Below the pieces are notes generated by a model that saw nothing but the letters and a program-made list of their open reading frames with translations, made no database searches and was not told the DNA's origin. DNA of 64,000 bases from Strigamia acuminata (lineage: Eukaryota): assembly GCA_949358305.1 (NCBI GenBank), contig OX442314.1:28210001-28274000 (forward strand), written 5' to 3'. The position numbers and the translations under genes are program-made. Position 1 is the first letter of the stretch, and every line of letters starts with the position of its first letter. Below, piece after piece: positions 25,881 through 62,514 of the stretch.

Positions 25881-26582
25881 TGTTGTTGTTATTGTGTCCT
25901 ATTGCTTGCTGTTACCGAGGTAATGGTAGATGGTAAATAAAGTTTGTTTGTTTTGGGTAATAATGTGTAGTTATATGCAGCACGGGCCTTGTTGTTTCGA
26001 GCAATGTCGCAGATGTGGATGAATAGTCGATCGAATCTGGAGCTTCCATCAGTGATGGTAATAATACTTAAAATACTTCAAAAAAATACTTCAAAATTTA
26101 TTTTTTATTTATTTTAGAGCAACTACAGGTGTCCACTGTCCAGTGTGTGCAGATGAAGTGACAATTTAATGTTAGAAATTATTTAAATGTGAGGAAATTG
26201 TGTACAAATTGCTTTTTAAAATCTCATTTGCATAAATGTGATTGTTCTACGCTCGTTTATGCAAAATTAAAACCAATTATCAACCCAATAAAGACCAATA
26301 CACTTGTATTACTAAACATTAACCAAGTAAACTAAACTAAAACATAAAATTCAGCCAAAAAATGTACTTACAAACGGCCCATTGATAATCAGTTGTGATG
26401 AAGGTCAAATTTTCCGACTCGCAGGTAGCGCCAAACAATAATTTCATTCTAAATTCACAAATAAAACCCACAATCGCAAATTATTTAGACGTAAATAAAT
26501 AAACAAAGCACAAAACCACACCTAGATCTGACATTCCCACTCGAAAAAACAAAAATTAAACAAAAATTAATTAACTCCTTCC

Positions 26583-32600: not shown

Positions 32601-35600
32601 TTAGTTTCTGGCTTTTTTAACTCGAGAAAATGATGGGAGGTTTGCATGAATGGTTATAAACTGATCAACTATCTTTTGCAATAGTTCTGGAATAGCAAGA
32701 ATTGAAAAGCCAAGCATTAGTGCAAAGGAATTTCCAATATCACAGCACAATGCAACTGTAGTGTAGGATAAAATTTGGGTAATCTCTTCAATTATGTTAT
32801 TCGTTGGAAATATACCGAGAATCTTGACTGGGAATGCGTCTGGATGTTGAAAGAAAACGTAAGTGTCAAATATTTGTTCTTCGCAAGGTGGATCACAACC
32901 ACAATCTTTCGTAACATCAACTTTTATAGAATTCTTCATAAATAGTTGTACCGAAGAAATTGCTTCTTCAGCATTTGCACAGGTGTTATTTGTTACATTG
33001 GGCAGAAATGGTAACCTAAAATTATAAACTTTCATTATGACCTATGTTGAATTATTACTGTTGAGTAATATCTCTAGAAATGATGTTACCCAGTGCAGTA
33101 ACTCTTTTCTGTCACCCCCTTCGATTTCCCCCGTAGACCTCTTTCAAGCAGTAACATGCTCACATTATATTTTATGAAAAATTACTACTCACTTGCATTG
33201 AACAAAATTATAAACCTTTTTTTCATAGCAATCATCTTGGCATCGTTTGTATTTGTCAGAGGCAAGGCAACGTTGAGCTCGCAAGTTTAATCGAACGGTC
33301 TAAATTAGAGCAAATGTTAGAAGAGGTTATGTGTATGTAATCATCCGATGTATTACTTTGAGCATTTTAAATGTAATAATGATGAAAGTGTCATCTAAAA
33401 CAGTTCTTCTACTTCTGAGAATTGCTGGTATTGGAGCTTTATTTTGTTGAAAGTATACCTAATTTGTAAAAAATTACGATTTACCACAATTTCTACTTTT
33501 CTACTTATACTGTACCTAAACTTGTAAGTTTACCATATCAATGACTTCACTAGAAAATTACATTACTTTACCTATTCCAAATACTCAGTGGTGAAAAATA
33601 TAACAGAAAACAGGCCGAACCAAGCAGCCACATATTCAGTTTTAGCAGTTACTTACTAGTATTTTCCACTAAACTGTGTGTTAATACAGTCCCTATAGGG
33701 TGGACCAAAACTCACAAACCGGTCTGAAATCTAAATAACTTTTTTTTAAATAATTTTTTAAAAATATTTCTTAAATTGGGAATTTTACTATCAAAAGCGA
33801 AGGACAATTTTGACCCAATGAGCAAATCAATTATTAGACATTTGATTGTTAGACGTTTGATTGTTGGATGTTGGGTTAGCAATATTGATCCTCGAATTTG
33901 TTAGTAAACTAACAATTTGCATTCTCTGTTTGGTCGTGAATTTTTCCACGATTAATCTTCAAAGTCTTCTTAACAAAATAGTTAAAGTTTGTGACTTTTG
34001 ACCCACCCTGTACTATTCTACTAAACTGAGTTACTTGATACTACTGTATTCAAATAAACTGAATAAAAACTACTACCACTACTACTACTTCACTTGACGT
34101 TATTTGAGTTTTGATGTCAACTCAAGTGATACTACTAAATCACTTGTCAAAAGTCAATCTTGATGTGCAATAATTGACGTTTAAACAAATTCTACATTAC
34201 GTCAAGCTCATGCTGATGACATATTTGACTTTTCGATTGTTGTATACCAAAAAATATTACTGAGGCAGCTCCTGCGTATTTCAATGGACCTGCAACAAGA
34301 TAATGCTCGTATAAATATTTTTTATATAATTTTTGTAAAATGTCTAGTTAAAGGTCATGGGAAGAGAAAAATAAAAATTGAGGAGAAGATTGTTTGTGTC
34401 ATTATTAGACCAAATCCATTGTTGAAACGTGTTCAATTGTTTCGAGAGTGTTATATCGTTCGTTTAAACGTTTGAAAATTCTCAAATGTCCTCCATTTTT
34501 AGTTTTCGAAAGTTTCCAAAAGTTGCCGTTGGTGGCGCTATTTATGACGTCATCGGCGACAAACAAGCAGCTTTTTAGCATGGGCTTGGCTTCATTTAAG
34601 AGCTACAAAATTTTTTTTCCAAATTTGACAACACTGTTAGGTTATTGGGATTTTAATATTCAGTAAATATTCCAATTTGCTATTTGTTGCAAGTGTATAG
34701 GTTCAAAAGAACTAATAATAAATTTTCGTAGCTCTTAAATGAAGCCAAGCCCATGCTAAAAAGCTGCTTGTTTGTCGCCGATGACGTCATAAATAGCGCC
34801 ACCAACGGCAACTTTTGGAAACTTTCGAAAACTAAAAATGGAGGACATTTGAGAATTTTCAAACGTTTAAACGAACGATATAACACTCTCGAAACAATTG
34901 AACACGTTTCAACAATGGATTTGGTCTAATAATGACACAAACAATCTTCTCCTCAATTTTTATTTTTCTCTTCCCATGACCTTTAAGTACCGATGTCAGA
35001 TTGATAGCATGTTCCAGTGGGCATAGGTATTTTACTCCACAATGCATTAGCTTTTACTCCAGCACCCTGCAAAGACATTTATGATTAACTTTCAGTTAAA
35101 TTGCCATAACATACATTTGCAAATTAAACAATTGCATATATTCTGTAGATAAAAAATTCAGGAGTTCTCATTGTTTGAATACAAGTACTCGACCACCAAA
35201 CTGACTGCCTGGCCCTTGCCCTACAATGGCCGATCCCCTGGTGACCCTCGTGCAACTTTGCCAAAATCTCTCTTCGCAGGCCAGTCGGAATAAAAATTTG
35301 ATTATTCTTCAGGATCAACCCCTTCTACATGGTCAGGTTAAGTTTGCCCAAATGGTTTGCCATTCCCATCATCGTCGCACGCCCGACACCAAAGTCGGCT
35401 TCCCCATTCCCACAATCGCCGCCACCTTCTCCTGGTCTGGCCGCACTCCGTGTTCGCTGATGTACACTCCCAGGAATCTAATGTCTCGCCTGCAAAACTC
35501 ACACTTCTCCCGGTTCAACTTAATCCTCGCCTCTCGCAATCTCCGCAAAACCACTCGCTTGTCGTGTTCCATTCTAGTCCGGATATGTACCAAGATGTCA

Positions 35601-38600
35601 TCGATCTGACACTCACACCCTTTGCATCCCTCCAAAATCTCGTTCATGCACTGTTGGAAATATTCTGGTGCCGACGTTATGCCGAATGGCAATCGGTTGA
35701 AACAAAATCGTCCAAAAGGCGTAATAAACGTTGTCAACAATCGGCTGCTCTCTGTCAATGCCACCTGACAAAATCCGTAAAAAGCGTCTAATTTCGTGAA
35801 AAACTTTGACCCCGCCACTGAGGCCAAAGTGATATCCACATCAGGCATCACAGTTCTGAACCTTCTCACGCCCTCATTTAGGGGTATTAAATCAACACAT
35901 GTGCTGTCATAAATGTCAACTTGCTATCCAGTTGTAAAGTCTCGAACCGATCCCGCACCAACTCGTCCTTCAAACTCGCATAGGCGCACGTCTCTATCAA
36001 TGCGACAAGCGACTAAATCCTGACATCCACCTCGCTCTTGATTAGTTCATATTTTGATTGTTGTGTTTCAAAATGGCGCATAGTGATCAAAAACACAAAA
36101 TGGCGCATAGTGATCAAAAACACAAAATGGCGTCAAAAATGCATCAACCGTCTCGCCCGGTTCCTGCTTCCTGCGATGAAATTGTGCATGTTCATAAATT
36201 ATATTACGCTTACCCACGAAATAGTCCTCAAATATCTGTTTCACACTGGCGTATTCTTTCTTCTTCTCAGCCGTCAAGCTCGTTGCCGCCAAAATGTCCT
36301 TCGCTTCGTCGCCCAAACAATAAATTAACGTCGTCATCTGTCTCCATTCACTAGCAATGTTCAGCTCGGACAACTCATGGTACCGCTCGAATCTTCGGAT
36401 CCATTTTGGCCAGCCCTCAGCGCACTTGAAATCGAACGCCGCCGCCATCTTTGGCGCCCGACAAGTCGCTAAAACGCCGCTCTCAACCGTATCCTCCCTT
36501 TCCTCCACCTTGACAACACTCACGCACTCTTCCCACATCCACAAACAATCAAAACCCTCATAAATCACTCAGAAATTCACTTCCGGCACCACGTCGCGAG
36601 TCGTAAACAGAGACCCGTGCGTACGTGTCGGCTAGCTTTATGAACTGTCGCTATCGCGCGCCTATCGCCACCTAGTGGCAAACACCACAGTTCATTTTTG
36701 AAAAATTTAATGCATCGGTAGATGAAGTGGGCGCGGATGATCGCCTTGCTTAAAAGTGGGTTGCGATGCTAAACAGTTTGGGAACCCCTGTACTACAGTA
36801 ACTTATTTGGTCGCGTAAAAACTTCTGGGGCAAAAAGGAGTCGCTAGGAAAATGATTGAGAAGCCCTGGGCAATACTTACAGTATTAGCAGTGTCCATTG
36901 CTGCTTTATCCATCAAAGGGGTTTGGTATCGCCACACTTCTTTTATTGACGGTTTTTTGTTGTTTTTAGTCATATTCATTAAATTGATAAAATGAACATC
37001 ACATTCATTTTTGCCTATTTCTATTGCATATGTCCTCCTGTAACGAGTCATTAATGGTCCATCCTTACATGCGATTAAATTGGGCAAATATAATGTGTTA
37101 TTTTCTTGAATAATTACTACATATCTTGTTGGTTCACTGAGATATAATGTGATTCTTTCTTTGCTCACATAAACTGCCAATACTGCAGAAGTAAATATAA
37201 GAAATAAATTCACTGCAGATTGCAGCAGAAGTTGTATTGGAGGCTGCTGTATCATAACCCGTGAAACACTTTTCTTTTTCTCAATGGCCAAATGTATTTG
37301 CTTAGTAATTTTCTTTTTTATGCCGGCTTTAAATTGAACAGGTCTGACAAATTTAGACAAAATGAGCATAAACATTTGTCCAATTTCAATCAAAGATAGA
37401 AGAGAAAATCCCAAAGAGAATCCCAAATTGCCCCCAAAATCGACCACCAAGTTTGGAATGGTGTAAATGTAGACTTCTGTCATTCTGACAAACAATTCTT
37501 CCAATACTTTCAAATTTAGGCTAAATAGATCTTTGCCATTTGGTTCATCTTCAAAATCTATCAAAAACATTAACAATCTGTTAATTATGCAACAAAATAA
37601 AAGAGATTATAGTTTAACTTGTATCAGTATGCATTATAAACAAATAAACACTCTGTTCACAAGGTCTCAAGCAACCACATTCTTCCGCTGACAGTGTAAT
37701 CGCTGCAAATGCTTTGACATACATTTCAGCCACAATTGATTTGTTTGGTTCTAAACTGCAATCCATCAAATTTTTGTTGGACATATAAGGTAACCTAAGT
37801 TAAAAATCTATGAGTATATCAATGTTGCAATGTTTAATGCAAATCTAACCTGCATCGTAGAGGATTTTTTCTTGTCATACAGTCTTGGTAACATTGGATT
37901 TCTTTTTTCTTATTCGGTTCGCAAGAAGGGTTTCTTGAAGATAAAAATTGATACTGCAATAAAAGAAATGCAGCATTACTATGTTTTGCTGAGCAATCAC
38001 ATAATAAATAAGATGTATGATAATGTTGTTTAATGTCCATCATAAATAAAGAGCACGCACTTAACCCTCTAGATGTTGCCTTTATTCTTGGCAAAGCTCG
38101 AGTGACAACTTTTACTCTCTTACACCTGTAGGTCACAATTCCCAAGTCGCGCCCTCTGGCGTCAGATTACAACATTAAAGGCACAACACGACAAGACGAA
38201 TTAGTGATATCTGATACACTTACTTTTCGAATGAGAAATTGCGTGTCTGATTCAATTCCTGACATCACGGAAAAAGTATATTTGTATGGCATGAGGTCAG
38301 TTAACACAGCCATCTAATATTCAATTATGTAAAAATAAAAGTATAAGTTCACACTGCATAGTAATAAAATAGTAAAAGCAGAGATTTCTTACCGAAATCT
38401 GTGGATTTTCACAGCTTCCATTCTTTTTAAGAATCATATGAATTTTCATATACTGCACTAATTTTCGATCTATAAAGGTTTAGCCAAAACTTTTTAAACT
38501 TAAAACCAAAATTGATTTTTTTTTTATTTTTCTAACCAGAATTAAGGACCAATGATTTTCCACTTATGTAATCTCTATAACTTAGTGAAATTTCTGTGTT

Positions 38601-39211
38601 ATCTTTTCTAGAAATTCCTTCTTTAATTGTTGTTTCATGCAATACAGTTTTACCCTGAAATTACTTGACCAACATGATTCCCATCCAATTTTATGAAAAC
38701 AATAGAAATTAAATACCTGTCTTATCTTTATGTGTTGTAAATTGCTTGAAATGTTGCTTTTCAGCCAGAAATCCGTATAATTCTCAACATTGATTGCTTC
38801 AGAAATCATTCCTTTCAGTGGTAGATAACAAACAAAAAACATTTGAAGCTGGCTTTTCCCTATCGAACCTTCAGCTAATTTATCCCAGTACTCCGATAAA
38901 GATTTGGTATCGAGGCCAAAGTACATCAGTTCCGGGAATGTCAGTTCACCTATTGGAACATATTCAATTTCAACTTTGAAATGTCCAGCAATGTAGTATT
39001 GAATTCTTTCCATTGTTTGGTAACAACAGACGGTGAAACAGACGATCAAAACAACTAACCATACCGCACGGATTAAACCACTCTTTTTTTTGTTGAAAAC
39101 ATTGTCAATAAACTTCAAACTATCTTTGTCTGACAGGGAAGTTTGCACTTCTTGATGCACAAGACAACGGATATGGCTTCGACGAAGCCTAAAAGCATTC
39201 ACCACAGTCAT
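32601..39211 (-). CDS. Tandem two-subunit DEG/ENaC (pickpocket-like) channel protein, copy A, ~837 aa, 12 exons
   Basis: Exons 39211-38717, 38654-38537, 38457-38393, 38313-38224, 37953-37850, 37794-37619, 37557-36881, 35066-34991, 34289-34201, 33458-33357, 33299-33193 and 33015-32601 join without stops. There are two TM1+FP/LP motifs, two Cys-rich thumbs (CGCLRPCEQ, CGCDPPCEE) and two TM2s (DFGGNLGFSLGFSLLSLIE; DIGNSFALMLGFSILAIPE). Confidence 0.88.
34352..34982. mobile_element. Non-autonomous TIR element with TTAA TSD and AG termini (Kolobok-like)
   Basis: TTAA at 34348-51 and 34983-86, with ~255-bp identical TIRs starting AGGTCATGGG. The empty site is present in copy B at ~53674. Confidence 0.85.
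35124..36690 (-). mobile_element. Deleted Ty3/Gypsy retrotransposon remnant in an intron of copy A
   Basis: gag (WPKWIRRFERY...LIYCLG...RKQEPGETVD), RT (FTKLDAFYGFCQ, TPFGRFCFNRLPFG, QIDDIL) and integrase Zn-finger (LHEGHQGI...ARQSVWW) fragments. Confidence 0.9.
38024..38174 (-). mobile_element. Probable solo LTR (151 bp) in an intron of copy A
   Basis: TGTTGT...ACAACA termini and internal AATAAA; absent from the homologous intron in copy B. No clean TSD. Confidence 0.5.
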
Positions 39212-42620: not shown

Positions 42621-42688
42621 ACTGAATAACTGCAAAATAGCCAAATTATAAATTGAAATCCCGGACGTCTTCGTCAACGAGACCCACC

Positions 42689-45600
42689 TGTTTCCAGCAA
42701 CATGGAGTGTCATGAGCCAGTCACTTGTCTGGACGTTAAATCATTAGTTCCTAGAAAATAAAATTCATTGTTTTTAATTTACAATCTTAAATTAGATTTA
42801 AAAAGGGCTCTTATCTGACACAGTCCAGTTGCAATCCCAGTGATTCTTTAAGTCTCTCAGGTTTTCCTCATGAGTTAATTTTATAATTAACTAACCAATT
42901 AATTTGTATTAATTGAGGAAGCCATTTTGGTGTGATACAGTCCTGATGATTGTTTACATTTGAAATAAGACAAATACCAAGGGTTTTAGTATTTGATAAT
43001 TGATTTGTTATTAATAAGAAAATATTAGAACATATTACAAAAGTTTTTACTTGGATTGGAGTTTTTAACTATTCATTTGTCTAATTAGTATCGGTTGTAA
43101 TGGAGTGATGCTTTCCTATTGGCTGGCTTCATTTCCAAATGCTTTGAGGATGTTTTAAAAGGATTAAAACATTCCTGTTATCTGTTGAGTTAACTGTTAA
43201 TTTAAAATACCTTTTGTGGTCATTATGAATCACTTCATTTTAAGTTATCTGTAGTTTCTCTTGTGTAATTCTCTTTGGAATTTCTGTGCACCTTATACGG
43301 TAGCCTATAGTGTCTATCTGTTTGGTTAAAAATACTGATGTATGGAAGTTCATGAGAGCTTTTCTGAATTCTTCTCTATTTAGTTGATTGTTCAGGAGCA
43401 CACAAGATTGTTGTGAGTGTGCTCTCGGCTTGTTACAAAGAAAATGGATGATTAAACACCTTTTTTATATCGCTGCTGCTTTTATTATGCTCGAGGAGTA
43501 AAACAACTCGCTTTCCCACCGGTGCGTTGTTGGCCCAGCTGGATGTTGTCTCGATTTTGGATCCCAAGCCACTCGTAATTTTTCACCACTATACGATCAG
43601 CCATCGCTCAACCATCATGACAGCAACACAAGGTTTTTTCTGGTGCCTTCTTTGACCAGGATTAAGTCAGATTGCCAAGATCAAGTCAGTTTGTCAGGAT
43701 TACTCCAGATTCCCAGGTTTCCGCCATTATTTCGTTTGTTAAGTCGGTGAATTCAGCAAGAAACGTGCTCGTGTCTACTGGGTCGTCATCAGTGCATGTG
43801 CCGTGCTTGTATGGTCTTCAGTGAAGTGCGCAGCTAGTGTGTGTGTTAATCGGTCGTCGGATAGTGCGTGCAGTTCTCGCCAGGCGTTCAAGCGTCGGAG
43901 TTGTGCCGTACCAGTGCAGTGCAAGAGCAGTGCAAGAGTCATCCGTGCGTCCAAGGTTGTGCATCACCGGAATCCATGGGACATCCAAACACAACGCAAT
44001 CCACAATGGGACACCTGCTTGAAGATGCATTATTATTGTTATTTTTCATTCCGATTAAAAATAAATAATTTGTGCAACTTTTGGGGGTGCAATCAGGCAA
44101 TATCCAGGAGTCAAAACGTTCTCAGTGGGTTAGCTTTTAATAAGTTAGTGTAAAATAAATCGTTTTTGCAGTAATTAGTCAATTAATTCAGTTTAAAAAA
44201 AAAGAGAAAATTCTAGAGTTCTCTTCATTTAAGGAACTGACTCTGGATAGAGGTTTGACTGCAATTGCTCGCTATAACCTCACTAGGAGGAGAGCAAATA
44301 TAAAGTGTTCTTTACATAGACTAGCCACTACAGGAGTGACTGTGGGTGGGGTCAGTGTAGATTACTAAGCAATTCATAGGAGTGTATGTCACTAACATTA
44401 TACTCAATTGGGATCAGTTTTTGCGGGTCCAGGTAGATAGTACCGAATCCCTGACCAGTCACCAGGGACATCCTTGTAGCCTAGCAGACCAGGTGCGTAC
44501 AATATTGATTAGGGACTCCCCTGTGGGTTGCCTTTACCTTTACACACGTACCTGCAAGACAATAAGGATTTTTCACAAAGAATTAAGGACTAATATATCG
44601 AATTACATATTTGAAGATGGCTTCCACTTCAGTTCCAGTTAATCATTCTCAAGAACAATTAGAAGAACTGGCATTTACATGGGAGACAAGAGCAGAGATT
44701 CTCGAGGACATGCTGGACGTCTCCTCAAACCAAACGAATGCAGGGGAACTCGAGGCTTCCTACGAAGCAATACAACAGCAAACTACTACTGTCATCGATG
44801 ACCTGTCAATTCTCCAACCACACCTAGATAGGAAAACTTATTTGGGTTACGTAGTCCGATTGGAGAGAATTGGTGCAAGGCTGATTCACTTGCGGAAAAG
44901 AATGGAGGTAGCCAGCAAGGCTGTAAAGCTGTTGGGTAATGGTGTTGGTCTGCCACCAGCACAGAACACTGGTACCTTTATCGGCTCCGGACGGAAAAGC
45001 AACATGAGGTTGCCAAAGTTTGACATGACGAAATACGATGGAAACCCTTTGCGGTACCAAACATACATGGACATGTTTCAAACTTCCGTGGATGAGAATC
45101 CCGATTTATCTGCAATTGAAAAGTTACAATACTTAAAAGTTACTTGTACCGGCGAGGCGGAGAAAGTCGTGGAATCTTTTCCATTAACCAAAGAAGCCTA
45201 TCCATTGGCTTTAGCCGAATTAAAGCGCAAGTATGGATCTGTAACCACTCAAAAGAATGCATTGATAAAAGCTATTCGAGATGTTAAGGCGGTACCCGAG
45301 TTGTATCCAATAGGTCCTGTGAAGAACTTGCTCACTGCAGTCTCATCTTCAATAAGAACCTTGGAGCAGTTACATGTTCCTGTTCGCACCGGTGGAGCAT
45401 TTTTGGTTCCAGAACTCCTCAAAAAATTTCCCGCTAAAATTTCAAAACATTTTCATCGACAACATGAAGAGGGGACAGAGAATCTCGTACAGTTTACTGA
45501 GTTTGTAGCCGAAGAACTTCGCTTAGCCGAGTTGTCCGAAGAGGTGGTTCTTGCGCATCGCTCTCTCACTAAGAAGACTGACAAGGGGAAATTTGAACAA

Positions 45601-48600
45601 GATTCCAAAGACAAGAAGGGTAGCATGGCTTCTTGCACGTCTTCGCAAGGAGGAAGTCCTCGATCCAAGTCTAGTCCGAAAGCACAAAACTCAGAAAAGC
45701 GTACAAACTTAGAGTGCGTGTTCTGTGAAGGCAAGCATTTCAACGCTCAATGTGATGCAAAACTTGATGCTGCTGCTCGAGTTGAAATAGTAAAACGCAA
45801 AAGGCTTTGTTTTAACTGCTTGCGTCGCAACCATTCAGTTAAAGACTGTACCGTACACTTTAATTGTCGTACCTGTGGAGGAAGACATCATACGATAATA
45901 TGCATGAAGAAAGGGATTGATTCGGAAGTTACCAAACCTGCACAGCAGAAGGACGAAGGTGTAAGTGCGAATGTATCGTTAGCTGTTTCAAGTGGTCTGC
46001 AACTTCGGATCTTTACTGCAAATCTTATCAGGAATTCCGGGGAGCCGTACGTAGTACGCGGACTTATCGATACCGGAAGTCACCGGTCATACATTACTCG
46101 TGCCCTCGCGTCTCACCTGAAATTAAAGAAAAAAGGTTCGATTTCTACCTCAATTCAAAGAGTAGATGATGTGAATCCTCAAGCCACATTTCACGACATA
46201 TTCAAGATTGATTTGAAGTCAAGACATGGTCCGCAAAGAGTCAAGCTGGACATTCTTTGTGCTAATACGCTACCTGCCATTCGTTCAACTAACAATCCAA
46301 AGGTCATTGCACAAGTCCAAAAAATGGGACTTGATTTGGCTGAAGAACTCCCATCTAGTACAAGCGATATCGATATTATTCTAGGAGAAGATTGTTGGTT
46401 TGATGTTGCGTTAGCAGGCCGGAAGAAAGTCAATGAAAAACTCGAATTATTTCAAACGATATTCGGTTGGGTTTTACATGGAAAGACGGGAAATGTCGAC
46501 CTTTTCGAAGAATCACAACAAGTATCTGGTTGCTACGTCTCGTGTTTGGCAGTCGGGGATCCCTTGGAGAAGATTTGGTCACTTGAGTCCATTGGGATCA
46601 ATCCAGGAGAGAAGACAACCGACTTCATACGTGACAGATTCGAGAATAGTTCCAAACGATTGGAAGACGGTCGTTATGAAGTTGTCTTACCGTTCAATGA
46701 CCACATCAACGAGCTCGATTCCAATTGGTCCAATGCACTTCATCAATTAGCTGCTACTCTAAGGAGATTGGATGGTCATCCAGATCTTCAGAAGAGATAT
46801 GATGATGCGATGAATGCTTACCTCGAAGCCAACCATGCCGAGGTGGTTCCTGTTGACGAGATTAACCAAGAATTATTGTATTATATCCCTCACCAACCCG
46901 TAATTCGTGAAGACCGCGAAACCACAAAATTTCGTGTGGTTTTTAATGCGTCGTCATCAAAGAAGGGCTATAGGTCCCTCAACGAGTGTCTGTATCCCGG
47001 GCCGTCGTTAAATCCAGACCTGATTGTCGTGCTCATCCGATTCCGCTTGCATTTCATAGTAGTGATAGCCGACATAAAACAAGCCTTCTTGCAAATAGCC
47101 ATTGCCTTAGGTCATAGAGATGTACTTCGATTTCTTTGGGTTAAGCCGGAATTTTTCCAACAACCATTCAGTTGGGCCAACCTATGGAAGAATCTGATCG
47201 TATTAAGGATGAAAGTTGTACCTTTTGGCGTCATTTCATCGCCTTTTCTACTTTGCGCTTCCATTAGACAACAGGCCAAGCTATTCCAAAACGAATATCC
47301 CAAGGAAGCTGAAGCATTGGACAAAGCCACTTATATGGACGACCTTACAAGTGGGGCAGGTACTCCTGACGACACAGTTGATCATTGCGAGAAGCTCAAG
47401 ACCATCTTGGATGATGCACAGATGCCCTTAGTCAAGTGGGCTACTGGAAACGACAATGTTCACACACAGTTGAAAGAGAAAGGATTCCACATGCGCTATG
47501 AAAGAATAGAAGACGCAGAGTATATTAAAATGCTCGGAGTCAAGTGGGGCGTTATTGAAGATAACATCATGTTTGCGATTGTAGATCGTCAGACTAAGGT
47601 TCAAACGATGCGGGAAATTCTATCTGCGGTTGCATCGGTATTCGATCCGTTGGGACTTTTAGCACCCATCATACTGCCAATGAAGTTGCTGCTTCAGAAA
47701 TTATGGAAAGAATCTGCCAAATGGGATGTACCACTTTCCGAAGAGGATGGAAACGTTGCCGCCCAATGGATCCAAGACATCCAAAGCCTGAACACATTGA
47801 AAGTCGAGAGATGGATGCAAACTCATTCCGGACAGGAAGTTACCGTACACATCTACTGCGATGCTAGTCCGTTAGCATACGGTTGTGCGGTCTATTTTGT
47901 CGACGATGTCAGATTTCGAAGGCTTTTGATGAGTAAATGCCGAGTAGCACCTGTAAAGAAAATAACGTTGCCGAGATTAGAACTAACTGCTGCCGTTTTA
48001 GGAGCTCGTATTGGGAAATACATCAGAGATAATATGAGCACAGAATTTCCAATTAAGGAGATTTCTTACTTTTCTGACTCCATGATTACTTTAGCGTGGA
48101 TACATTCTCCTAAGAACCAATGGAAGCCCTATGTGTCAAATCGGATCTATGAAATAAATAGTCTGTCAAAACCAGAAGAGTGGCATTACGTATCGACACA
48201 AAACAATCCAGCTGACGCGCTAACTCGACCAATGACTTCTGAGGATTTGATAAGTCACCCTCTTTGGTGGAGTGGAAAGATATCAGAGATTGAAGGGATC
48301 ACAAGTGATGTTGTTTTTCCTGCAGAAGAATACAAGGCCGATAACGTCAATCTAGCCACCATAGACACAGGACAGCTGCATATTTCCAATTTCATTCGGA
48401 AATTTAGCTCTTTCCAAAAACTCAAGCGAGTCGTCTCTTACATAATGAAGTGGAAAACACGAAACTTTCGCGCGGGAGAGATCTCGACTGACGAGTTGGA
48501 GTGTAGCGAAGCTGTATTACTCCATCTGTCTCAAGAATTTTATTTTAAAGACGAAATAACCGAGTTGAAAGGCGGAAGAGTAATTGCAAGGAAATCATTG

Positions 48601-50845: not shown

Positions 50846-51427
50846 CCACCTTTGTTCCCGAGTATCTCGACGTGATTGCCAATCTACCAAACGTTCCAGT
50901 AACAGGGACAAGCATAGTAACGCGGACCGAAACCCGCATTCACTTTGACGTAAAAAGAGAAATTCCGGCCGTCGCTCAATCCGAGCGCATCGACGTGATT
51001 TGACAGCTTTGCGTGGAGTCAATTGTCGTTCTCACTAGTATTTTCCTTCTTATTTCATTCTTTCTGTTAATCGTTTATTTTATATTTAAGCCGTATATTA
51101 ATTAATCACCCAAACTGTATTAAAGTCGAGAAAGTCACTCGCATTGTAACTATCGAATTCTATATCATTATTGTAAATTCATATTTCATTACTAAAAGTG
51201 TTATTAAATTTAAGAAAGTTTAAATTGAGAAAACTTGGTTATTAATAATAACCAAGTTATTATATTATTTATGTCTTTTAAAAAGCATCCGCGTTCTTAG
51301 TTTCTTATCAATTAAAGATTGAGGAACACAACAATGCAAATAGATAAATACTGTGCAAATAATTCATAATTAATAATTGCATTTTAGGAAATTTCAGATT
51401 TGACGCTTTAAATTAAAATCTGACATT

Positions 51428-54400
51428 TTAAACTCGAGAAAATGATGGGAGGTTTGCATGAATGGTTATAAACTGATCAACTATCTTTTGCAATAGTTCT
51501 GGAATTGCAAGAATTGAAAGGCCAAGCATTAGTGCAAAAGAATTTCCAATATCACAGCACAATGCAACTGTAGTGTAGGTTAAAATTTGGGTAATCTCTT
51601 CAATTATGTTATTCATTGGAAATATACCAAGAATCTTGACTGGGAATGCGTCTTTATCTTGAATGAAAACGTAAGTGTCAAATATTTGTTCTTCGCAAGG
51701 TGGATCACAACCACAATCTTTCGTTACATCAAGTTTTAAAGAATTGTTCATAAATAGTTGTACCGAAAAAATTGCTTCTTCAGCATTTGCACAGGTATTA
51801 TTTGTTACATTGAGCAGGAATGGTAGCCTAAAATTGTAAACTTTCATTATGACCAATGTTGAATTATTACTGTTCAGTGATATCTCTAGAAATGATGTTA
51901 CCCAGTGCACTAACTCTTTCGTGTCACCCCCTTCGATTTTCCCCGTGCACTTCTTTCACGTCCTCTTGGCCCAAGCAGTAACATGCTCACATTAAATTCT
52001 ATGAAAAATTACTACTCACTTGCATCGAACAGAATTATAAACCTTTTTTTCATAGCAATCATCTTGGCATTGTTTGTATTTGTCGTGGTGAAGACAAGGT
52101 TGAGCTTGCAAGTTTAATCGAACGGTCTAAATTAAGCAATTGTTAGAAGAGGTTGTATGTAATCATCTGATGTATTACTTTGAGCATTTTAAATGTAATA
52201 ATGACGAAACTGTTATCTACAACAGTTCTTCTACTTCTGAGAATTGATGGTATTTTAGCATCATTTTGTCGAAAGTATACCTAAATTGTAAGAAATAACG
52301 ATTTACCACAATTTCTACTTTCTACTTATACTTAAACTTGTAAGTTTACCATATCTATAGAGAGTTTGCGGGATGCATTTTTCCCTTATTTTGCTCCATG
52401 GTACACTATTTTATCGTAAGGAAAAAATCTTTAGTGTATCGTTTTCAACACTAAATTAAAATATAGCGTAGCCAATCAGAATTGAGAACACTATATTGTT
52501 AACTATATTGTTAACTCCGCCCATTGCAAATGGCGATTATTTTGTTGTCCCGATCAAAGACATCACAGTCATAGGTACGTAGATTGAATGATAAGTGAGG
52601 CCCAAAACCATACTTTATAGGCATAATAATGGCATTTTATGCAGAAATTTGCACATTTACGCCCCCAAATTGAATTTTTAGGCCCAAAATTACTAACTGT
52701 CAGTAGTTGGCTGAAATAGTGTAGCGATAAGGGAAAAGTGCAGCCTGCAAAAACTTAATTTATCATTTTTCCCTTACGCTATTTTTCTACCGTATAGTCT
52801 TTAACTGTAAGGGAAAAATGCATCCCGCAAACTCTCTAATAACTTTTCTAAAGAACACCTTACCTATTCCAAATACTCAGTGGTGAAAAATATAGCAGAA
52901 AACAGGCCTAACCAAGCAGCCTCATATTCAGTTTTATTGTTTCAATTTGAAGGCATTACGACTTTAGACTTTAGACTTTAGACTTAAGATTTTAGCAACT
53001 ATTTCGCCACTAAACTGTGTGTTAGTACAGAACCTACAGGGTGGGCCAAAAGTCACAAACCGGTCTGAAGTCTAAATGACTTTTTTATAAATAACTCACG
53101 ACCAAAACAGTGAAGACAAATTGAGAATTTTACTACCAAAAGCGAGGGTCAATTAACTCAATTTTGACCCAATGAGCGTATCAATTATTAGACATTTGAT
53201 TGTTAAGACGTTTGATTATTGGATGTTTGTTTAGGATTATTTTAGTAGAATTTAACTATTTTCGTTCTCTGTTTGATCGTGAACTTTTTCATGATTAATA
53301 TTCAAAGTGTTCTTAACAAAATAGTTAAAGTTCGTTACTTGTCCAATCCTGTATTATTCTACTACATAAACTGAGCTGGTTGACACTACTGTACTCGTAT
53401 TCAAGTAAACTGAATAAATACTACTACCACTACTACTTCACTTGTTATTTGAGTTTTGATGTGCATTAAACTACTGTATTTAAGTCAACTAAGTGCAATA
53501 ATTGACGTTTAAACAAATTCTACATTACGTCAAGCTCATGCTGATTACATTGACTTCTCAATTGTTGTACACCAAAAAATATTATTGAAGCAGTTCCTGC
53601 ATATTTCATTGGAGCTGCAACAAGATAATGCTCGTATAAATATTGTTTATATAATTTCTGTAAAATGTCTAGTTAAGTACCGATGTCAGATTGATAGCAT
53701 ATTCCAGTCGGCATAGCTATTTCACTCCACGATACATTAGCTTTTACTCCAGCACCCTGCAAAAACATTTCTGATCAACTTTGAGTTAAATTGAATACAA
53801 GTACATGTATGTGCAAAATTTGAGCTAGGCGATTAGAACATGTGACGGTTACGAATCGATAGTACATAAATACTTAATTTTGTCAATAGATGGCGCTGTT
53901 TGCAAATAGCGCCAAATTCAAGCTACGAGTAAGATAAAGAAATATATAAATAAACTTATTTATTTATTTGCCAGATTTGATATAGCTTTATATCAGTAAT
54001 AAATCAAGATTTATATGCAATACATACAAGAATAACTAATTTCCAAGGAAATTAGTTAAACTTGGCCAAAAGAATTAACAAGGGATTATGTCACCCCTCA
54101 CACCTACACAGGTTAAGACAAAAGACTTAATCTGAAATTGTCCTGTGTATCCAGTTTCTGTTCTCTTCTAAAAGAGAACTAGTGTCCTGTGTATCCAGTT
54201 GCTGTTCTCTCCTAAAAGAGAACTAGTGTCCTGTGTATCCAGTTCCATCAATACACTCGGTGCAATATTCGCGTAATGTCGATTTCATGTGAAACTGACA
54301 TATGAACCTTATTCTGAGTTTTGGATTTAGATTTAGATTTTAGATTTATATTAATGTCTAAAACAACTCCTTTATTTGTTTAAAAATATATTTTTATATT

Positions 54401-57400
54401 TAATACCGAGAACTATCAAGTTCGTATTCGAATTTACCGCTAATATACTCTGGCCATGTGTAAGTTTGGTCTAACTCCGAGCCTCATAACTCACTTTGTG
54501 CTGCCACCAAGAAAAATAGTTCATAGTTTATTGCTTGCTTCTTCCAGAAACCAAAACAATTTTAAAATTTATTATTGATTGTTAAGTCTGAAACAAAATG
54601 GATACCACTAACTCTGGCAGTTGGATCTATTTTCTGGTATCACTACACCAGAGAAAAGGCTCGGAGTTAGGCCAAACTTACACATGGCCAGAGTATAGCG
54701 GCAACATGTAGCATTGACAAATGCGGGTTTTGCCGATAAATTTTCATAATTCGGACGAGTTAATAATAAATAACACTTTTAATTTGTCACAATACTTACA
54801 GAAATAGCCATCTTCATTGCTGTTTTATCCCTCGAAGGCGTTTGGTATCGCCACACTTCTTCTATTGACGGTTTTTTGTTCTTAATAGTCATGTTCATTA
54901 AATTGATAAAATGAATCTTGCATTCATTCATGCCTATTTCTTGTGCATATCTCCTCCTGTAGCTAGTCATTAATGATACATCCTTACATGCAATTAAATT
55001 GGGCAAATATAATGTGTTATTTTCTTGAATAATTACCACATATCTTGTTGGTTCACTCAGATATAATGTGATTCTTTCTTTGCTCACATAAACTGCCAAT
55101 ATCGCAGAAGTAAATATAAGAAATATATTCAGTGCAGATTGCAATAGAAGTCGTATTGGAGAGTGCTGTATCATAACCCGTGAAACACCTTTCTTTTTCT
55201 CAATGGCCAAATGTATTTGCTTAATAATTTTCTTTTTTATGCCCGCTTTAAATTGAACAGGTCTCATGTATTTAGACAAAATGAGAAGAAAGATTTGTCC
55301 AATTTCAATCAAAGATAGAAGAGAAAATCCCAAAGAGAATCCCAAATTGCCCCCAAAATCGACCACCAAGTCTGGAATGGTGTAAATGTAGACTTCTGTC
55401 ACTCTGACAAACAATTCTTCCAATACTTTTAAATTTAGACTAAATAGATCTTTGCCACTTGGTTCATCTTCAAAATCTATCAAAAACATTAACAATTCTG
55501 TTAATTATGCAACAAAATAAAAGAGATTATAGTTTAACTTGTATCAGTATGCATTATAAACAGATAAACACTCTGTTCACAAGGTCTCAAGCAACCACAT
55601 TCTTCCGCTGACTGTGCAGTAGTCGTTGCAAATGCTTCGTCATACATTTCAGCCACAATTGATTTGTTTGGCTCTAAACTGCAATCCATCAAATTGTTGT
55701 TGGACATAAAAGGCAACCTAAGTTAAAAATCTATGAGTATGTCAATGTTTATGTTTCAATGTTCAATGCAAATCTGACCTGCATCGTAGAGGATTCATTC
55801 TTGTCATACAGTCTTGGTAACATTGGATTTCTTTTATTTTATCCGGTTCGCATGAAGGGTTTCTTGAAGATAAAAATTGATACTGCCATAAAAGAAATGC
55901 AGCATTACTGTGTTTTGCTGAGCAATCACAATAAATAAGATGAATTAAATTAGTGATATCTGATACCCTTACTTTTCGAATGAGAAATTGCGCGTCTGAT
56001 TCAATTCCTGACATCACTGTAAAAGTATATTTGTATGGCATGACGTCAGTTAACACAGCCATCTAATTTTCAATTATGTAAAAATAAAAGAATAAGTTCA
56101 CACTGTAGTAATAAAATGGTAAAAGCTGAGATTCTTACGGAAATCTGTGGATTTTCACAACTTCCATTCTTTTTAAGAATCGTATGTAATTTCATATACT
56201 GCACTAATTTTCGATCTAAAAAGATTTAGCCAAAAAATTTTAAACTTTCAACCATAATTGATTTTTTTTTATTTTTCTAACCAGAATTAAGGACCAATGA
56301 TTTTCCACTTATGTAATCTCTATAGCTTACTGAAATTTCTGTGTTATCTTTCCTAGAAATTCCTTCTTTAATTGTTGTTTCATGCAGTACAGTTTTACCC
56401 TAAAAAAATAATACATCTGTAAGCCTATATGTGATTCAACAAATTATAAGGACAACGTAAATGAATATTGATGAATAAATAAATATTTTTTATATCCGTT
56501 TGATCTTACGTCATTTGTTGTGATCCCAAATATTCCCGTAATATTTGGGTGAATTTTAATGTATACAATATATAAATAGGGGATTTTATGTAATTATTGC
56601 ATGCATTTTATTTCACACCTGCTACTGCTCTCAGCTGTTAAGGGAAAGCCATTGCTCGTTTCTTAGTATCAAAACTGCCAAATTGGGGGGTTGCTATAGC
56701 AAACTCCTAATGAGCACCGTTGCTAGGCACGAAGTGTGCCAGGCACCCTCACCACTTTCACCACACTGTCCACAGCTCTGCACTCAACACACAGTTTACA
56801 ATTAACAGCTAATAGTATACAAGGTGTCCCAAATGAACGAAGCCGGTCAAATAACGAAAAGACTATTTGAGTGAGATGAATGAAACAAATGTAGTACTAG
56901 TAAACTAAGTGAGGGCATTTCAAAAATGTGAAAAAATTTGACCTCTGACCTTTTCTTCAAGGTCATTCCAACTCTAACTTTTAAACTAAGACTGGTAGAG
57001 CAAAATTCTCAATTGAAAAAAGAAAGAGCACCTTCTGTTTAGTAGAAAACTGCTCATCAAATTTACTCCGACACAATAACAAATAAAATTACGAAAAAAA
57101 TAAATCATGAAAAAGTCTTGATCTTGGTTTTCTTTTTTGTATATTTTAACTTTTTCATAATTTTATTTGTTAAATATCATTTAAAATACTAGTTAAATTC
57201 ATAACAATTCATGACTGCATAGTAATTGAATACAAAAAAGTCAAAAAATACAAAAATGAAAACCAAGATCAAGACTTTTTCATGATTAATTTTTTTCGTA
57301 ATTTTATCTGTTATTGTGTTAGAGTAAATTTGATGAGCAGTTTTCTACTAAACAGAAGGTGCTCTTTCTTTTTTCAATTGAGAATTTTGCTCTACTAGTC

Positions 57401-60400
57401 TTAGTTTAAAAGTTAGAGTTGGAATGACCTTGAAGAAAAGGTCAGAGGTCAAATTTTTTCACATTTATGAAATGCCCTCACTTAGTTTACTAGTACTACA
57501 TTTGTTTTATTCATCTCACTCAAATAATCTTTTCGTTATTTGACCGGCTTCGTTCACTTGGGACACCTTGTATACCTTACTAATTATTATTCATGTGGAA
57601 GGTGGTCAGAAATAACGAACAGTCTTGGTAAGGTTAAACTAACAAGTGATTTTATTAATATGCAAAATACATAGGTGGCGCTGTGGGTACAGCGCCCAAA
57701 GAGAACATGGCAGTCACTACACACAAACATGCAGTGAAGCCGAACACAGCATCATTCCCCATTAATGGAACATTAATCAACTTACAAAAAACAATTAATT
57801 GAATTAAGACTAGACAATGAACCAAATCAATAAAAGACATAAAATTACACTCAATTTCTTGCGTCGTATCCGTAGAATTCTGTCGGATTGCGCGTGCGAT
57901 GGGGACGTGAATACGGCACAACAGGAGTACGGACTGGGACGGGAGGAAGAGTAGGAGCTGGAATCACGTCCCGAACATTCGGTGGGTTGGGTGAATTGGG
58001 AGGAGCATCAAACACTTGCGGTTGGGCAACAGGCGGAGTGTTTACAGGAATTAAATCCACGTCAAGGAGCGGAAAATGCTTACAATTTCTCCCCCCCTCC
58101 GAAGGCTGAGTGCTCAGGGTCTGGCGCTTTTGTAGTTGATCCGCGTGTCTGTTTCACATCACGGCGTTTCTGACGGTCACATCGTAAGTGGTTGACGAAG
58201 TTTTGGAAGAGATTACGCCAGGAACCCATCTTGAGGCGTGCAAATAGTCGCCCGCGAACACCAATTCCCCAGGCTCGAAGGAACGTCGCGTTTCTACAGT
58301 TGTTGGTTCCGGCATTAAGCGCGGATTGAGCAGATATAACCTAGTTCGTACAGTTCGTTGTAGGAATGCCTCGGACGGCGTAGTCCGTGTAGAAACATGC
58401 GGCGTCGAGCGATAGGCGATTAAAAACTGGTAGACAGCTTCTGCAATGTTCAAATTTAGGTTTAAAAACTTTCCGACTTGGTTTTTGAAGGTCTTCACGA
58501 AGCCTTCCACGGCTCCATTTGTGGCTGGGTGGAAAGGCGGTGAGCGCGTGTGGCGAATGCCGTTTTGTGATAAGAAGTTGACAAATTCCGCCAAGATGAA
58601 CTGCGGCCCGTTGTCCAAGTGAATGTGAATCGGCAGGCCGTGGCGTTTAAACCAGCACTTTAAGACAGCAATCGTCGCTTTCGAGGTAGTAGTGGGCATC
58701 GCTCGGACTTCGCACCACTTGGTCCGCGCATCCACAGCTAAAAGGAACATTTTGCCATGGAAAGGACCGGCGAAGTCGAGGTGAACGCGCCCCCAAATTT
58801 CGTCGGGAATGGGCCAACGCATGTCGGATGTCTTTGGTGGATCCGGCAGCGCGCGCTGGCAAACGTCGCACGAGCGCACCATCGTCTCGACGTCACGGTC
58901 GATGGACGGCCACCAAACTGTTGCACGAGCGAGCGACTTGGTGCGGACGATTCCGAAATGTCCTGCGTGTAATTCCGTCAGGACTGCACGGCGAAGCTGC
59001 TCTGGCACGACCAAACGCTCCGACAAGAACAAGAATTGTCCATGTGTAGAAAAGGCGGACCTGTGCTTATAAAAGTTCATTAATTCGGGCGTTCTCAATT
59101 TCCAGCCGTCTCGAATGCACTGCAGGACTGCTTGCAACTGGGCGTCTGCGTCGAAGGCTGCACACAAGGCTGTTTGAGATACAGGGAACTGTGAAAGAGA
59201 AACAGAAAATATCTCGTTAACATGCCTATCGAGGTCTTCTCGACCATCGATCACTGGCTGGGGATTGCGTGACAATCCGTCTGCGATTTCGTTGTCGGCA
59301 GCCGGCACATGCTCGATCGCATAATCGTAGGCGCTTAGAAATATTGCCCACCAGTGCAGGCGAGCGGCGACAATTTGATTGCATCCTTTCTTTTTTCCGA
59401 AAATAGCTACCAGCGGTTTATGGTCAGTTTGCAAAATAAATTTTCTTCCAAATAGGTGATGGTGGAATCGGCGGACGCCATAAACGATCGCAAGACCTTC
59501 GCGGTCAATTTGCGCATAATTTTTTTGCGCGCTGGACAAGAGGGAACTGGCGAAGGCGATTGGACGGTGGATTCCTCCTTCCAAGTGGGAAATGAAGGCA
59601 CCGACACCAACCGGCGAGGCATCAACGGTCAAGTAAAGCTGTTTCTGGGCGTCGTAGTGTGCCAACGCTGAATCGACAGTCACTGCAGCCTTGACCTTCG
59701 TCCAGGCCTTGTGCTGTTCCGGTCCCCATGTCCACAGAGTGTCGTCGCGCGTCAGGCGGTAAAGCGGCTCTAATAAAGTGGATAAGTTATGAATAAATTT
59801 GCCATAATAGTTTATGAGCCCCAGGAACGACTTCAGTGATAACACGTCGGTGGGCTGCATGTAGGGTTTCTCAAAAACGCACTTTTTGAAAAACCGGTAT
59901 TTCGGTATTCAATGTCCAAAAAAACCGGTAAACCGGTAATTTTCGGTAATGAAGTAAAATAAAATATTTTTATTTTTATTTTCCTTTTTTATAAAGTAAA
60001 ATTTTAAAAAATATTTTTTTTTCTGAAGATTTTTGTCACATTTTGGATACGATCTTTAATACACTTCATGTTCTGATTTAAAAAAAATTATTTTCTGGTT
60101 AATTTGTCTGCTTAAACCAGTTAATGAAACAGAATTCAGGGTCAAGTTAATAACACACTTCTTCAATTGGGTTTGTAATTTTGACGCCATTTTAAAACAT
60201 ACAAGAAAACTTTCAATAATTTTGAGAAATTTTTTTTTTAAATATGGTAATAACAATAATAATTATAAATAATAATAAAGTAGAGAAGTTTTTTGTAAAT
60301 AAATTTCTTGCTCTTTTAAATCCGAATCAAACAAGGTCAGAGAAAGGGAAAGGGGAACCTCAGTGAGTCAAACCCCTCAAGCACGTGCCTCTCACATTCC

Positions 60401-62514
60401 TAAAAATATTACAACTACTATTGGACCAAATTTTTACTCAAAAAAAATATAAAAAACAACAATAATAATTAATTGAAAATAAAAATAGTTAAAAACCGAC
60501 CATTTCCATCCCTAAAATGAAATATTTTGGCGGTGTTTTCCCTATTTTTCTCCCAATAAAAACCGGTAAAAATACCGAAATAAAGACGGTATTCGGTATT
60601 CGGTTTTTTTAAAAAAAATACCGGTTATTGATACCGGTAAATACCGGTAGAGAAACCCTAGCTGCATGGCGTTGCAAAGTGGGGCCAGTTTTGAGTCCAC
60701 GGGCGTGATTCCTTGCTTGGAAATGTTCAGCCCTAAAAACTGCACGCACGCACGCAAAAACTTGCACTTTTTCCTATTTAATGTTAAATTGGCCTTATTA
60801 AATGCACCCAGGAGTTGGTCCAAGTTGCATAAGTGAGCTGCATTCGTGGCACCAGTCACAGCCGAATCATTGATGAACGGCTGCTTGCTCTCGACTTTCG
60901 CGGTCAGTTTGTCCATCTCGCGCTGGAAAATTGCTGGTGCACTTGAAATCCCATAAAAAAGACGATTTACTGTAAAGAGACCCAAGTGGGTATTAATTGT
61001 ACACACTTGTTTGCTCTCTGCATCCAACTCGAGCTGATTGTAGGCGTGATTCATATCTAAAGTAGAATACGTCTCATGTTTGTTAAAAAATTAAATTAAT
61101 TAATTAAAGTTTTCTAAAAACAAACATAAAATTACAAACATTAAAATTACTGCTAAAAAAATTAAAAAATAAAAGTAAAAATTTTCACACACACACACAC
61201 CAGGATTTGAACCTGTGTTGAAAGATTCCTAGTCCATTGCCTTAACCACTGGACCACAACTACAAACTATTATTGTCTTCATGAAGACAGTCATAAAATT
61301 CCTGGATGTAACCATGTGACCAGAAAACAACTCCAGAAAAAATAGTTCTGGATTAGTGCTCCAGAACTATTTTCCTGGAGTTGTTGCTCAGCAACCAGTT
61401 GTTTACCATATCCCTACACACAGCCTTTTCACTCAAAATGTCTACTAGAGCCCCAAAAGAGTACAGATTTGGGATAATTACTATGGTTAATCAGCTGACC
61501 AGGGAGATTTAAAAATTTAGGCAATTATTAAGCTCACTTTAGACATCATTTGGCCAAAATTTGGCCAAAATCTAAAATAACTTATTCATGTGGTTCCCTT
61601 GTTAGTATATACCTTACTAATTATTATTCATGTGGAAGGTGGTCAGAAATAACGGACAGTCTTGGTAAGGTTAAACTAACAAGTGATTTTATTAATATGC
61701 AAAATACATAGGTGGCGCTGGGGGTACAGCGCCCAAAGAGAACATGGCGGTCACTACACACAAACATGCAGTGAAGCCGAACACAGCAGCTAACTTTTTT
61801 TTCTCTAAAAAAATCAAGTCTAAAAGTGTGGGGTGCGTCTTAGAATCGGGTGCGTTTTAGAATCGATACTGTAATAACAATTTTTGCATGGGTATGTACA
61901 CTAGTACTTTTAATGACAATGGTGTCTGTAGAATGCTGGACTCCAGCATTACAGTAACCAATTACTTGACCAATACATGATTTCCATCCAATTTTATGAA
62001 AGTAATAAAAATTAAATACCTGTCTTATCTTTATGTGTTGTAAATTGCTTGAAATGTTGCTTTTCATCCAGAAATCCGTATAATTCTCAACATTGATTGC
62101 TTCAGAAATCATTCCTTTCAGTGGTAGATAACAAAGAAATAATATTTGAAAATCGCCTTTTCCTTTCGAACTTTCATCTAGTTTTTGCCAGTAGTCGGAC
62201 AAAGAATTGGTATCGAGGCCAAAGTACATCAGTTCCGGGAATGTCAGTTCACCTATTGGAACATATTCAATTTCAACTTTGAAATGTCCAGCAATGTAGT
62301 ATTGAATTCTTTCCATTGTTTGATAACAACAGACGGTGAAACAGACGATCAAAACAACTAACCATACCGCACGGATGAAACCACTCTTTTTTTTGTTGAA
62401 AACATTGTCAATAAACTTCAAACTATCTTTGCCTGACAAGGAAGTTTGCATTTCTTGATGCACAAACCGACGGATATGGCTTCGACGAAACCTAAAAGCA
62501 TTCACTACAGTCAT
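51428..62514 (-). CDS. Tandem two-subunit DEG/ENaC channel protein, copy B, ~832 aa, 12 exons
   Basis: Exons 62514-62020, 56399-56282, 56203-56139, 56062-55973, 55882-55779, 55717-55539, 55476-54800, 53756-53681, 53614-53529, 52280-52179, 52126-52020 and 51827-51428 join without stops. Same architecture as copy A. Confidence 0.88.
52359..52837. mobile_element. MITE with ~30-bp TIRs in an intron of copy B
   Basis: AGAGAGTTTGCGGGATGCATTTTTCCCTTA...TAAGGGAAAAATGCATCCCGCAAACTCTCT; absent at the homologous site in copy A (~33540). Confidence 0.8.
54444..54697. mobile_element. MITE with ~40-bp TIRs and TA flanks
   Basis: TATACTCTGGCCATGTGTAAGTTTGG...CCAAACTTACACATGGCCAGAGTATA. Confidence 0.8.
56820..57570. 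mobile_element. Tc1/mariner-type MITE with ~330-bp TIRs inserted in the Gypsy 3' LTR
   Basis: TA-CAAGGTGTCCC...GGGACACCTTG-TA with long near-perfect inverted arms. Confidence 0.9.
59862..60660. mobile_element. Non-autonomous hAT element inserted in Gypsy pol
   Basis: 8-bp TSD GCTGCATG (59854-61, 60661-68), TIR TAGGGTTTCTC/GAGAAACCCTA, subterminal ACCGGT repeats. Confidence 0.92.
61196..61262 (-). mobile_element. tRNA-derived (SINE-head-like) fragment
   Basis: Minus strand reads GTGGTCCAGTGGTTAAGGC...GGTTCAAATCC (A and B boxes), runs into (TG)n, and has no acceptor stem. Confidence 0.55.

Follow-up and report, generated by a model that had tools for sequence, protein, structure and literature searches.

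We have identified two gene copies in the centipede Strigamia acuminata, here called A and B, each of which encodes two complete modules of the DEG/ENaC channel family in a single reading frame. Both lie on the minus strand of a 64,000-nucleotide (nt) stretch of genomic DNA (NCBI GenBank assembly GCA_949358305.1, contig OX442314.1, positions 28,210,001 to 28,274,000), which is referred to as the window and from whose first letter all positions are counted. That the double is one frame with two complete modules, and not two neighbouring genes joined by a splice model, is supported by a single open exon in which module 1 ends and module 2 begins. Reviews give a simple rule for the family, namely a two-helix subunit and three separate chains per channel; a natural two-subunit chain breaks this rule and poses a counting problem for a trimer.

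Each half is an ordinary DEG/ENaC subunit, and the two-in-one chain is undescribed in the literature searched. Full-text literature searches, with supplements and subscription journals outside their scope, turned up no description of a naturally occurring DEG/ENaC chain that is fused or has several modules, and within that literature the initial annotation of this DNA, which knew of no characterised natural example, was correct. The words pickpocket, degenerin and amiloride do not appear in the main text of the Strigamia genome paper; PMC8438182 refers to Vizueta et al. 2020 on PPK-like sequences of this genus. Similar multi-module models have long stood unnamed in UniRef. Multi-domain DEG/ENaC models are easily taken for annotation mergers, and the single-exon junction indicates that some are real.

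Two DEG/ENaC modules in one reading frame

The junction exon (exon 7) lies at 37557-36881 in A and 55476-54800 in B. It is 677 nt long in each copy, bounded by AG and GT, and comprises 225 codons in one open frame. In both copies this frame contains the motif of the second transmembrane helix (TM2) of module 1, a basic linker of ~40 residues, and the first transmembrane helix (TM1) and post-TM1 motif of module 2. In A these elements are located at ~37447-37355 (TM2), ~37354-37238 (linker) and ~37237-37160 (TM1), followed by the post-TM1 motif and the finger. The single exon without a stop or an intron, as claimed in the initial annotation, was found in 2/2 copies. Its conclusion that the double is not a splice-model merger also held, given the single open junction exon and a junction common to relatives. 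The Pfam ASC profile matches the exon at residues 9-58/59 (profile positions 403-452/453; E 1e-9 in A and 3e-10 in B), and on the stop-free junction frame of A a profile of the module recovers first the closing part of a module and then the opening part of another (E 3e-12 and 6e-16). Across 18 aligned rows, comprising 16 of the 18 junction-spanning relatives described below and both window exons, the linker is 30-56 residues long and holds 8-15 Lys and Arg residues.

Pfam was run on exon translations, and the spliced chains were scored with a local profile derived from 20 modules taken from proteins outside the window. All six translations of exons 1, 7 and 12 of A and B exceeded the curated cut-off of ASC (PF00858); in both copies exon 1 matches ASC positions 15-69 and exon 12 matches 332-453 (E 3.5e-7 and 2.5e-8, respectively, in A). 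The local one-module profile gave two non-overlapping, near-full matches per chain (25-421 and 434-820 in A; 8-421 and 435-820 in B; E 1e-53 to 1e-64), which is the outcome that had been anticipated for a natural double. Hydropathy likewise gave the anticipated four hydrophobic regions, at ~43-68, 401-424, 461-487 and 791-820 (the last in corrected numbering), and four membrane helices are present in the model of a relative, P0012. The canonical DEG/ENaC subunit is one module with two membrane helices (PMC9822975, PMC10148893); the frames described here have two modules and four helices.

Each module has a TM1, a cysteine-rich thumb and a TM2, as originally proposed. There are eight thumb cysteines per module (A residues 271-340 and 679-748), and alignment with relatives places the post-TM1 proline motif in both modules. 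Both also keep the TM2 aspartate and the G-x-S motif, which reads G-F-S in both modules of A and in module 1 of B, and G-L-S in module 2 of B. The pre-TM1 His-Gly (HG) motif is absent ahead of both TM1s in A and B. This motif is not required for membership of the family, because PDPNaC1, a working member described in PMC12714832, also lacks it. Over 372 alignment columns, the two modules of A share 24% identity, and they are specialised by position, which fits the earlier description of a pre-linked heterodimer. Their intron phases are 0,1,0,0,2 in both modules of A, with 2/5 introns at the same alignment column (computed on the earlier exon-9 acceptor). Module 1 keeps D-x-G-G-N-x-G in TM2 across the family. 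In module 2 of most doubles the second glycine is Asn or Ser, and Ala, Ser or Gly occupies the position of PDPNaC1 Gly378. In the window genes, module 1 keeps Gly378, and module 2 has Ala there and Asn at the preceding second glycine.

The spliced models have 12 exons each and are open (A, 841 residues, 96.3 kDa; B, 836 residues, 96.0 kDa), with GT-AG boundaries at 11/11 introns per copy and a shortest intron of 52 nt. In A, exon 1 (38717-39211) holds the start codon, an N-terminus without the HG motif, TM1 of module 1 and its post-TM1 motif. Exon 2 (38537-38654) encodes part of the module 1 extracellular domain and is followed by exons 3 (38393-38469) and 4 (38224-38313); the thumb cysteines of module 1 lie in exons 5 (37850-37953) and 6 (37619-37794; profile positions 282-334, E 1e-8). 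Downstream of the junction, exon 8 (34991-35066) matches the end of relative P0001, and exons 9 (34201-34289) and 10 (33357-33458) lead to exon 11 (33193-33299), with thumb cysteines of module 2, and exon 12 (32601-33015), with thumb, TM2 of module 2 and the stop. Copy B consists of exon 1 (62020-62514; TM1 of module 1), exons 2 to 6 (56282-56399, 56139-56215, 55973-56062, 55779-55882 and 55539-55717), the junction exon (TM2, linker, TM1), exons 8 to 11 (53681-53756, 53529-53614, 52179-52280 and 52020-52126) and exon 12 (51428-51827; TM2 of module 2), in which the stop falls five codons earlier than in A. In A, a stop in the same frame precedes the ATG by three codons, and exon 12 closes with a stop; together these limit the chain to two modules. 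No additional DEG/ENaC exon emerged from a six-frame scan of 1971 open pieces in the window.

The acceptor of exon 9 was placed by the family alignment. With the first AG past the donor of intron 8 as acceptor, this intron in B would be only 12 nt, which is impossible, and the frame would contain a stop; that choice was overruled: the 18 residues following this AG are extra relative to relatives, and the next in-phase AG, 54 nt further on, restores the family spacing and was adopted on that basis. Corrected intron 8 is 66 nt long in B and 701 nt in A. Two ideas, that B is a pseudogene and that the A intron had been rescued by a transposon, were dropped once the acceptor was so placed. Both 12-exon models proved open with the corrected acceptor. 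As to the claim that the double is kept intact in two copies, open frames and intact splice sites stand, and the early stop of B qualifies it.

Self-comparison of the window resolves two head-to-tail duplicates, at ~32.5-41.6 kb and 51.4-63.8 kb, with a long terminal repeat (LTR) element between them. Their proteins are 87% identical, and the ratio of nonsynonymous to synonymous substitution rates (dN/dS), obtained by simple counting over 835 codons, is 0.68 (p 0.019 for the difference from 1). If changes that create a stop had accumulated at the synonymous rate, ~11.7 would be expected; one was seen, five codons from the end of B; the two short exon indels between the copies are whole codons. 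These figures indicate that both frames have been kept open.

Relatives and history of the family

Comparison of the junction exon with 1.84 billion representatives gave 24 matches, of which 18 had their best stretch across the junction. Each of these 18 is a predicted, uncharacterised protein from another centipede, Strigamia maritima, and the shared junction that the initial annotation suggested seeking in relatives was found there. P0001 (UniRef T1ITA9), a fragment of 346 residues, is 59% identical over the whole junction exon. The S. maritima multi-module ASC proteins (P0001, T1JD34 = P0012, T1ITL7 = P0011, T1J963 = P0004 and others) have the same order of TM2, basic linker and TM1 and are collinear with the window proteins along both modules. 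They differ in being automatic predictions without a description and in including a subgroup (P0002, P0003, P0009 and P0015) with at least three modules. Taken singly, any of the predictions could be a merger, but for the S. maritima group this is unlikely, because the junction in the window is a single exon and is shared. The remaining 6/24 matches comprised three proteins with three modules each, two from the shrimp Halocaridina rubra and one from a midge, as well as two ordinary single subunits and a fragment.

Word-indexed searches were too insensitive for the range of the family: the junction exon matched none of 1382 longer candidates, an alignment found only P0012 among 7988, and P0008 found 2/3790. 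The junction exon of the window was not found in the Atlas; for P0012 the Atlas returned ASC clusters only, with representatives of 376-485 residues.

A quick tree was built from 46 modules, with the junction-spanning relative P0022 and pieces shorter than 200 residues excluded and BRTNaC1 and PDPNaC1 outside the set. Nine second modules, including those of A and B, grouped with support 96, and 12 first modules grouped together with one second module (support 87). This sorting of modules by position suggests that a single fusion took place long ago and that the double was later duplicated as a unit as the family expanded. In the subgroup of P0002, P0003, P0009 and P0015 (support 100), positions are mixed and the repeats, at least three per protein, are near-identical and recent, which suggests that repeats arose again there. 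The large centipede family, together with the putative three-module forms elsewhere, is an addition to the initial annotation.

Three DEG/ENaC modules per chain were found in P0008 and P0019, both from H. rubra, and in P0025 and P0026. The latter two, of 1015 residues each, were called on contigs of 4409 and 3990 nt and align with the two shrimp proteins over the full length at 26-29% identity. A contig of 4 kb with 3 kb of coding sequence most likely derives from a transcript or an intron-poor gene; of the signs that a triple forms a single reading frame, this is the strongest. In the tree, the nine modules of shrimp type fall into groups by position (support 95, 95 and 82) and stand apart from the centipede rows at a support of only 80; their tree positions make an independent origin of these triples likely. 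The junctions of the triples are ~20 residues below the shortest double (anchor distance 70-72 vs 90-116), and go down to ~10-15 residues. On this sequence evidence, P0025, P0026, P0008 and P0019 are candidate single-chain trimers. The midge protein P0007 (Polypedilum vanderplanki, 1460 residues) was not counted as support, as it may be a merger of tandem genes.

Two minor features of these proteins were recorded. The extracellular domain of the middle module is much reduced in P0025 and P0019 (~210 residues). P0007 has three close pickpocket-like modules with a short first junction and is either a real triple or a tandem-gene merger.

By profile and by fold, the nearest characterised proteins are the centipede channels BRTNaC1 (PDB 8ymr/8ymw/8ymx; PMC9974506) and PDPNaC1 (PDB 9jf7; PMC12714832), with which the window modules have a compact extracellular domain in common. 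Profile matches were E 1e-41 for BRTNaC1, 6e-37 for PDPNaC1 and 4.5e-18 for the next, and Foldseek agreed. BRTNaC1 (431 residues) and PDPNaC1 (421 residues) are single subunits with two helices, whereas the window genes have two such units per chain, at ~20% identity. The AlphaFold2 model of relative P0012 (791 residues; mean predicted local distance difference test score (pLDDT) 66.6, predicted template modelling score (pTM) 0.61) has four membrane helices and two full extracellular domains. Both halves of this relative show the hand-like subunit fold when compared by VIA-align: residues 423-786 match BRTNaC1 (Z 20.1, root-mean-square deviation (rmsd) 5.1, 335 aligned) and residues 51-381 match PDPNaC1 (Z 18.7, rmsd 3.8, 312 aligned), with ASIC1 behind them (Z 14.4). 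The output of this model is silent on the packing of the two halves. A fold of P0025, computed from four alignment rows, reached a pLDDT of 29.4.

Proposed assembly and alternatives

We are largely confident that the product is made as one chain. For its assembly, we lean towards a reading in which two different subunits on one four-helix chain are neighbours in one trimer, the third place being taken by a one-module subunit or by half of another double. The initial annotation had proposed a chain that needs a third partner (2+1) or that cross-links trimers; its reading is supported for the frame and its two modules, and either assembly is still a proposal. The subunit order would have been fixed long ago, when two copies of a gene like BRTNaC1/PDPNaC1 fused head to tail. 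The chain would be made whole, with four membrane crossings and the short basic linker in the cytoplasm; its two modules would sit next to each other in one trimer, the pore of which a third subunit would complete. With a canonical pore helix from module 1 and bigger residues at the upper constriction from module 2, the pore would be asymmetric. In PDPNaC1, Gly378 is the upper constriction, and larger residues at this position raised sodium selectivity (PMC12714832). The product would be a sensory cation channel whose tuning diversified with expansion of the family. From the closest solved relatives only, which are antennal heat and proton sensors, we infer a sensory role for the double; a large family in a centipede genus described as blind makes it a candidate for an overlooked expansion of sensory receptors.

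Joining of subunits from C- to N-terminus through a cytoplasmic linker, with order and number fixed, is familiar from engineered ASIC concatemers, which are functional as trimers with 19-residue spacers in addition to their own tails (PMC10329638). Those constructs are artificial and have three modules with full tails, whereas the window chain is natural, has two modules and merges the tails into ~40 residues. The triple junctions, being shorter than those of the doubles, suit modules that are neighbours in one channel. Since each position is encoded separately, the doubles reveal ways in which the individual places of a three-part pore can become specialised, a question that in ASIC/ENaC work needs engineered concatemers.

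Two-pore channels, K2P channels and the four-domain Nav/Cav channels are oligomeric channels whose subunits have been fused in one chain, with repeats that diverged by position. These channels are four-fold, and two or four repeats divide evenly. In a three-fold channel, by contrast, the repeats of a double do not. A broader proposal is that nature has concatenated DEG/ENaC subunits more than once, with the centipede doubles as scaffolds that accept an exchangeable third subunit (a 2+1 sensory code) and the shrimp-type chains as single-polypeptide pseudo-trimers; we put this forward tentatively, a little short of an even chance. If it is true, the single-chain triple is to ASIC/ENaC what Nav/Cav are to the tetrameric potassium channels.

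Several observations weigh against the neighbouring-places trimer and its history. Two modules do not divide into three, and the third subunit is hypothetical. Both genes are known from genomic DNA alone. The S. maritima relatives are automatic gene predictions, many of them fragments, whose exon layout is not visible; the modelled fold is that of a relative ~25% identical and not of the window protein; and the tree is of a quick type with long branches, in which the first-module group has a support of only 87. An unphased variant at 37300, in contigs of sequencing runs X1 and X2, is a candidate linker stop in a divergent paralogue. Finally, TM2 of module 2 departs from the canon at two glycines family-wide, which could mean that it does not line the pore, and dN/dS between A and B is 0.88 for module 2 (p 0.33), indistinguishable from neutral, vs 0.50 for module 1 (p 0.006). 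By these ratios, module 2 appears to be either relaxed or diversifying.

The last two points are those expected if only module 1 forms the pore, as a homotrimer of three chains with the second modules outside as sensors, scaffolds or regulators: module 1 keeps D-x-G-G-N-x-G, and module 2 is altered at the second glycine in most doubles and varies at the position of Gly378. We regard this arrangement as unlikely. Module 2 retains the TM2 aspartate, G-x-S, eight thumb cysteines and a cysteine pair that module 1 has lost, and the second half of P0012 folds as a whole subunit. The dN/dS gap rests on 95 and 73 changes, with each module set separately against neutrality.

Similarly doubtful is an assembly of doubles only with doubles, in which three chains would form two trimers tied by the third chain, or longer strings, so that fusion clusters channels. 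The scan described above found no one-module DEG/ENaC in the window; the 30-56-residue linker, of low confidence in the P0012 model, may be flexible, and P0002 and P0003 hold three or more modules. Against this, much of the linker is drawn in that model as a helix continuing TM2, and one-module centipede channels of the BRTNaC1/PDPNaC1 type form homotrimers (PDPNaC1, PMC12714832; BRTNaC1, PMC9974506), so partners for a double can exist.

Production of separate one-module proteins, by cleavage of the linker, by an internal start before the second TM1 or by an early transcript end, would make the fusion a device for coupling expression. The linker is rich in Lys and Arg, a Met lies shortly before the second TM1 in A, B and P0001, and the variant at 37300 may be a stop in a paralogue. 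We nevertheless judge separate products to be distinctly improbable. Met is not enriched in the linker (14/18 rows vs 11.9 expected); there is no AATAAA or ATTAAA in the linker of A or B, the sole one lying at 36947 in copy A only; and an early transcript end would leave module 1 without a stop.

Three sequencing runs gave DNA contigs identical to parts of copy B, and there is one such match to A, over most of the linker (37275-37403); the matching runs may be the window's own source and are not independent. Runs X1-X3 cover introns as DNA does, X6 covers 6/30 bins, in repeats only, and X4 and X5 gave no coverage, a pattern that carries no information about expression. A third close copy is present at equal depth around 54820-54834, and many more distant paralogues cover the junction. 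One paralogue contig of 818 nt crosses it with gaps that total 12 nt, keeping the frame through the linker, which also speaks against separate products. Of 94 paralogue variants, 40 were classified: 9 are silent, 30 change a residue and 1, at 37300, creates a stop if it occurs alone. A paralogue with that stop would encode module 1 alone, provided there is no second change in the codon. This unphased variant is the one finding that bears on a condition which the initial annotation named as refuting, a stop in the linker in reads.

That A and B are decaying or unexpressed duplicates with a functionless fusion is very improbable: transposable elements in three introns and the high overall dN/dS would suit decay, but the frames are open, the splice sites are intact, one stop near the end was seen against ~11.7 expected, and 18 relatives retain the junction, the closest of them at 59% identity.

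Transposable elements and neighbouring genes

The element between the two copies is a BEL/Pao LTR retrotransposon (42688-50857). Its 953-nt LTRs are 99.6% identical and it has an open frame of 1752 codons (44587-49842), which together suggest a recent insertion. Intron 1 of copy B (56400-62019) contains a 5.5-kb insertion with a Gypsy-type element bounded by 181-nt terminal repeats (57571-57751 and 61608-61788, 98%), beside which lies a 341-nt inverted repeat. The splice acceptor of B exon 2 differs from that of A and seems to be derived from the end of this insertion. Intron 8 of copy A harbors a miniature inverted-repeat element (34345-34989) with 273-nt arms, four mismatches and TTAA at both ends; it is absent from B, and in A it sits at a TTAA four bases past the donor. 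Reverse-transcriptase fragments are present in intron 7 of copy A (35067-36880).

Elsewhere in the window, the single-exon frames at 22537-23337 and 25239-25898 (minus strand) and a similar frame nearby have 220-270 codons and are alike by eye; Pfam gave no match above cut-off for the two frames, which leaves a small gene cluster without a name. Pieces resembling ionotropic-receptor genes, apparently repeated, lie at 2401-4362 (plus strand; weak Pfam match only, E 0.07). Exons at 5707-10681 (minus strand) resemble, by their translation, an MTR4/SKIV2L2 RNA helicase. A gene of the Wnt family with several exons is located at 28903-30423 on the plus strand (Pfam wnt, E 3e-17 and 8e-31).

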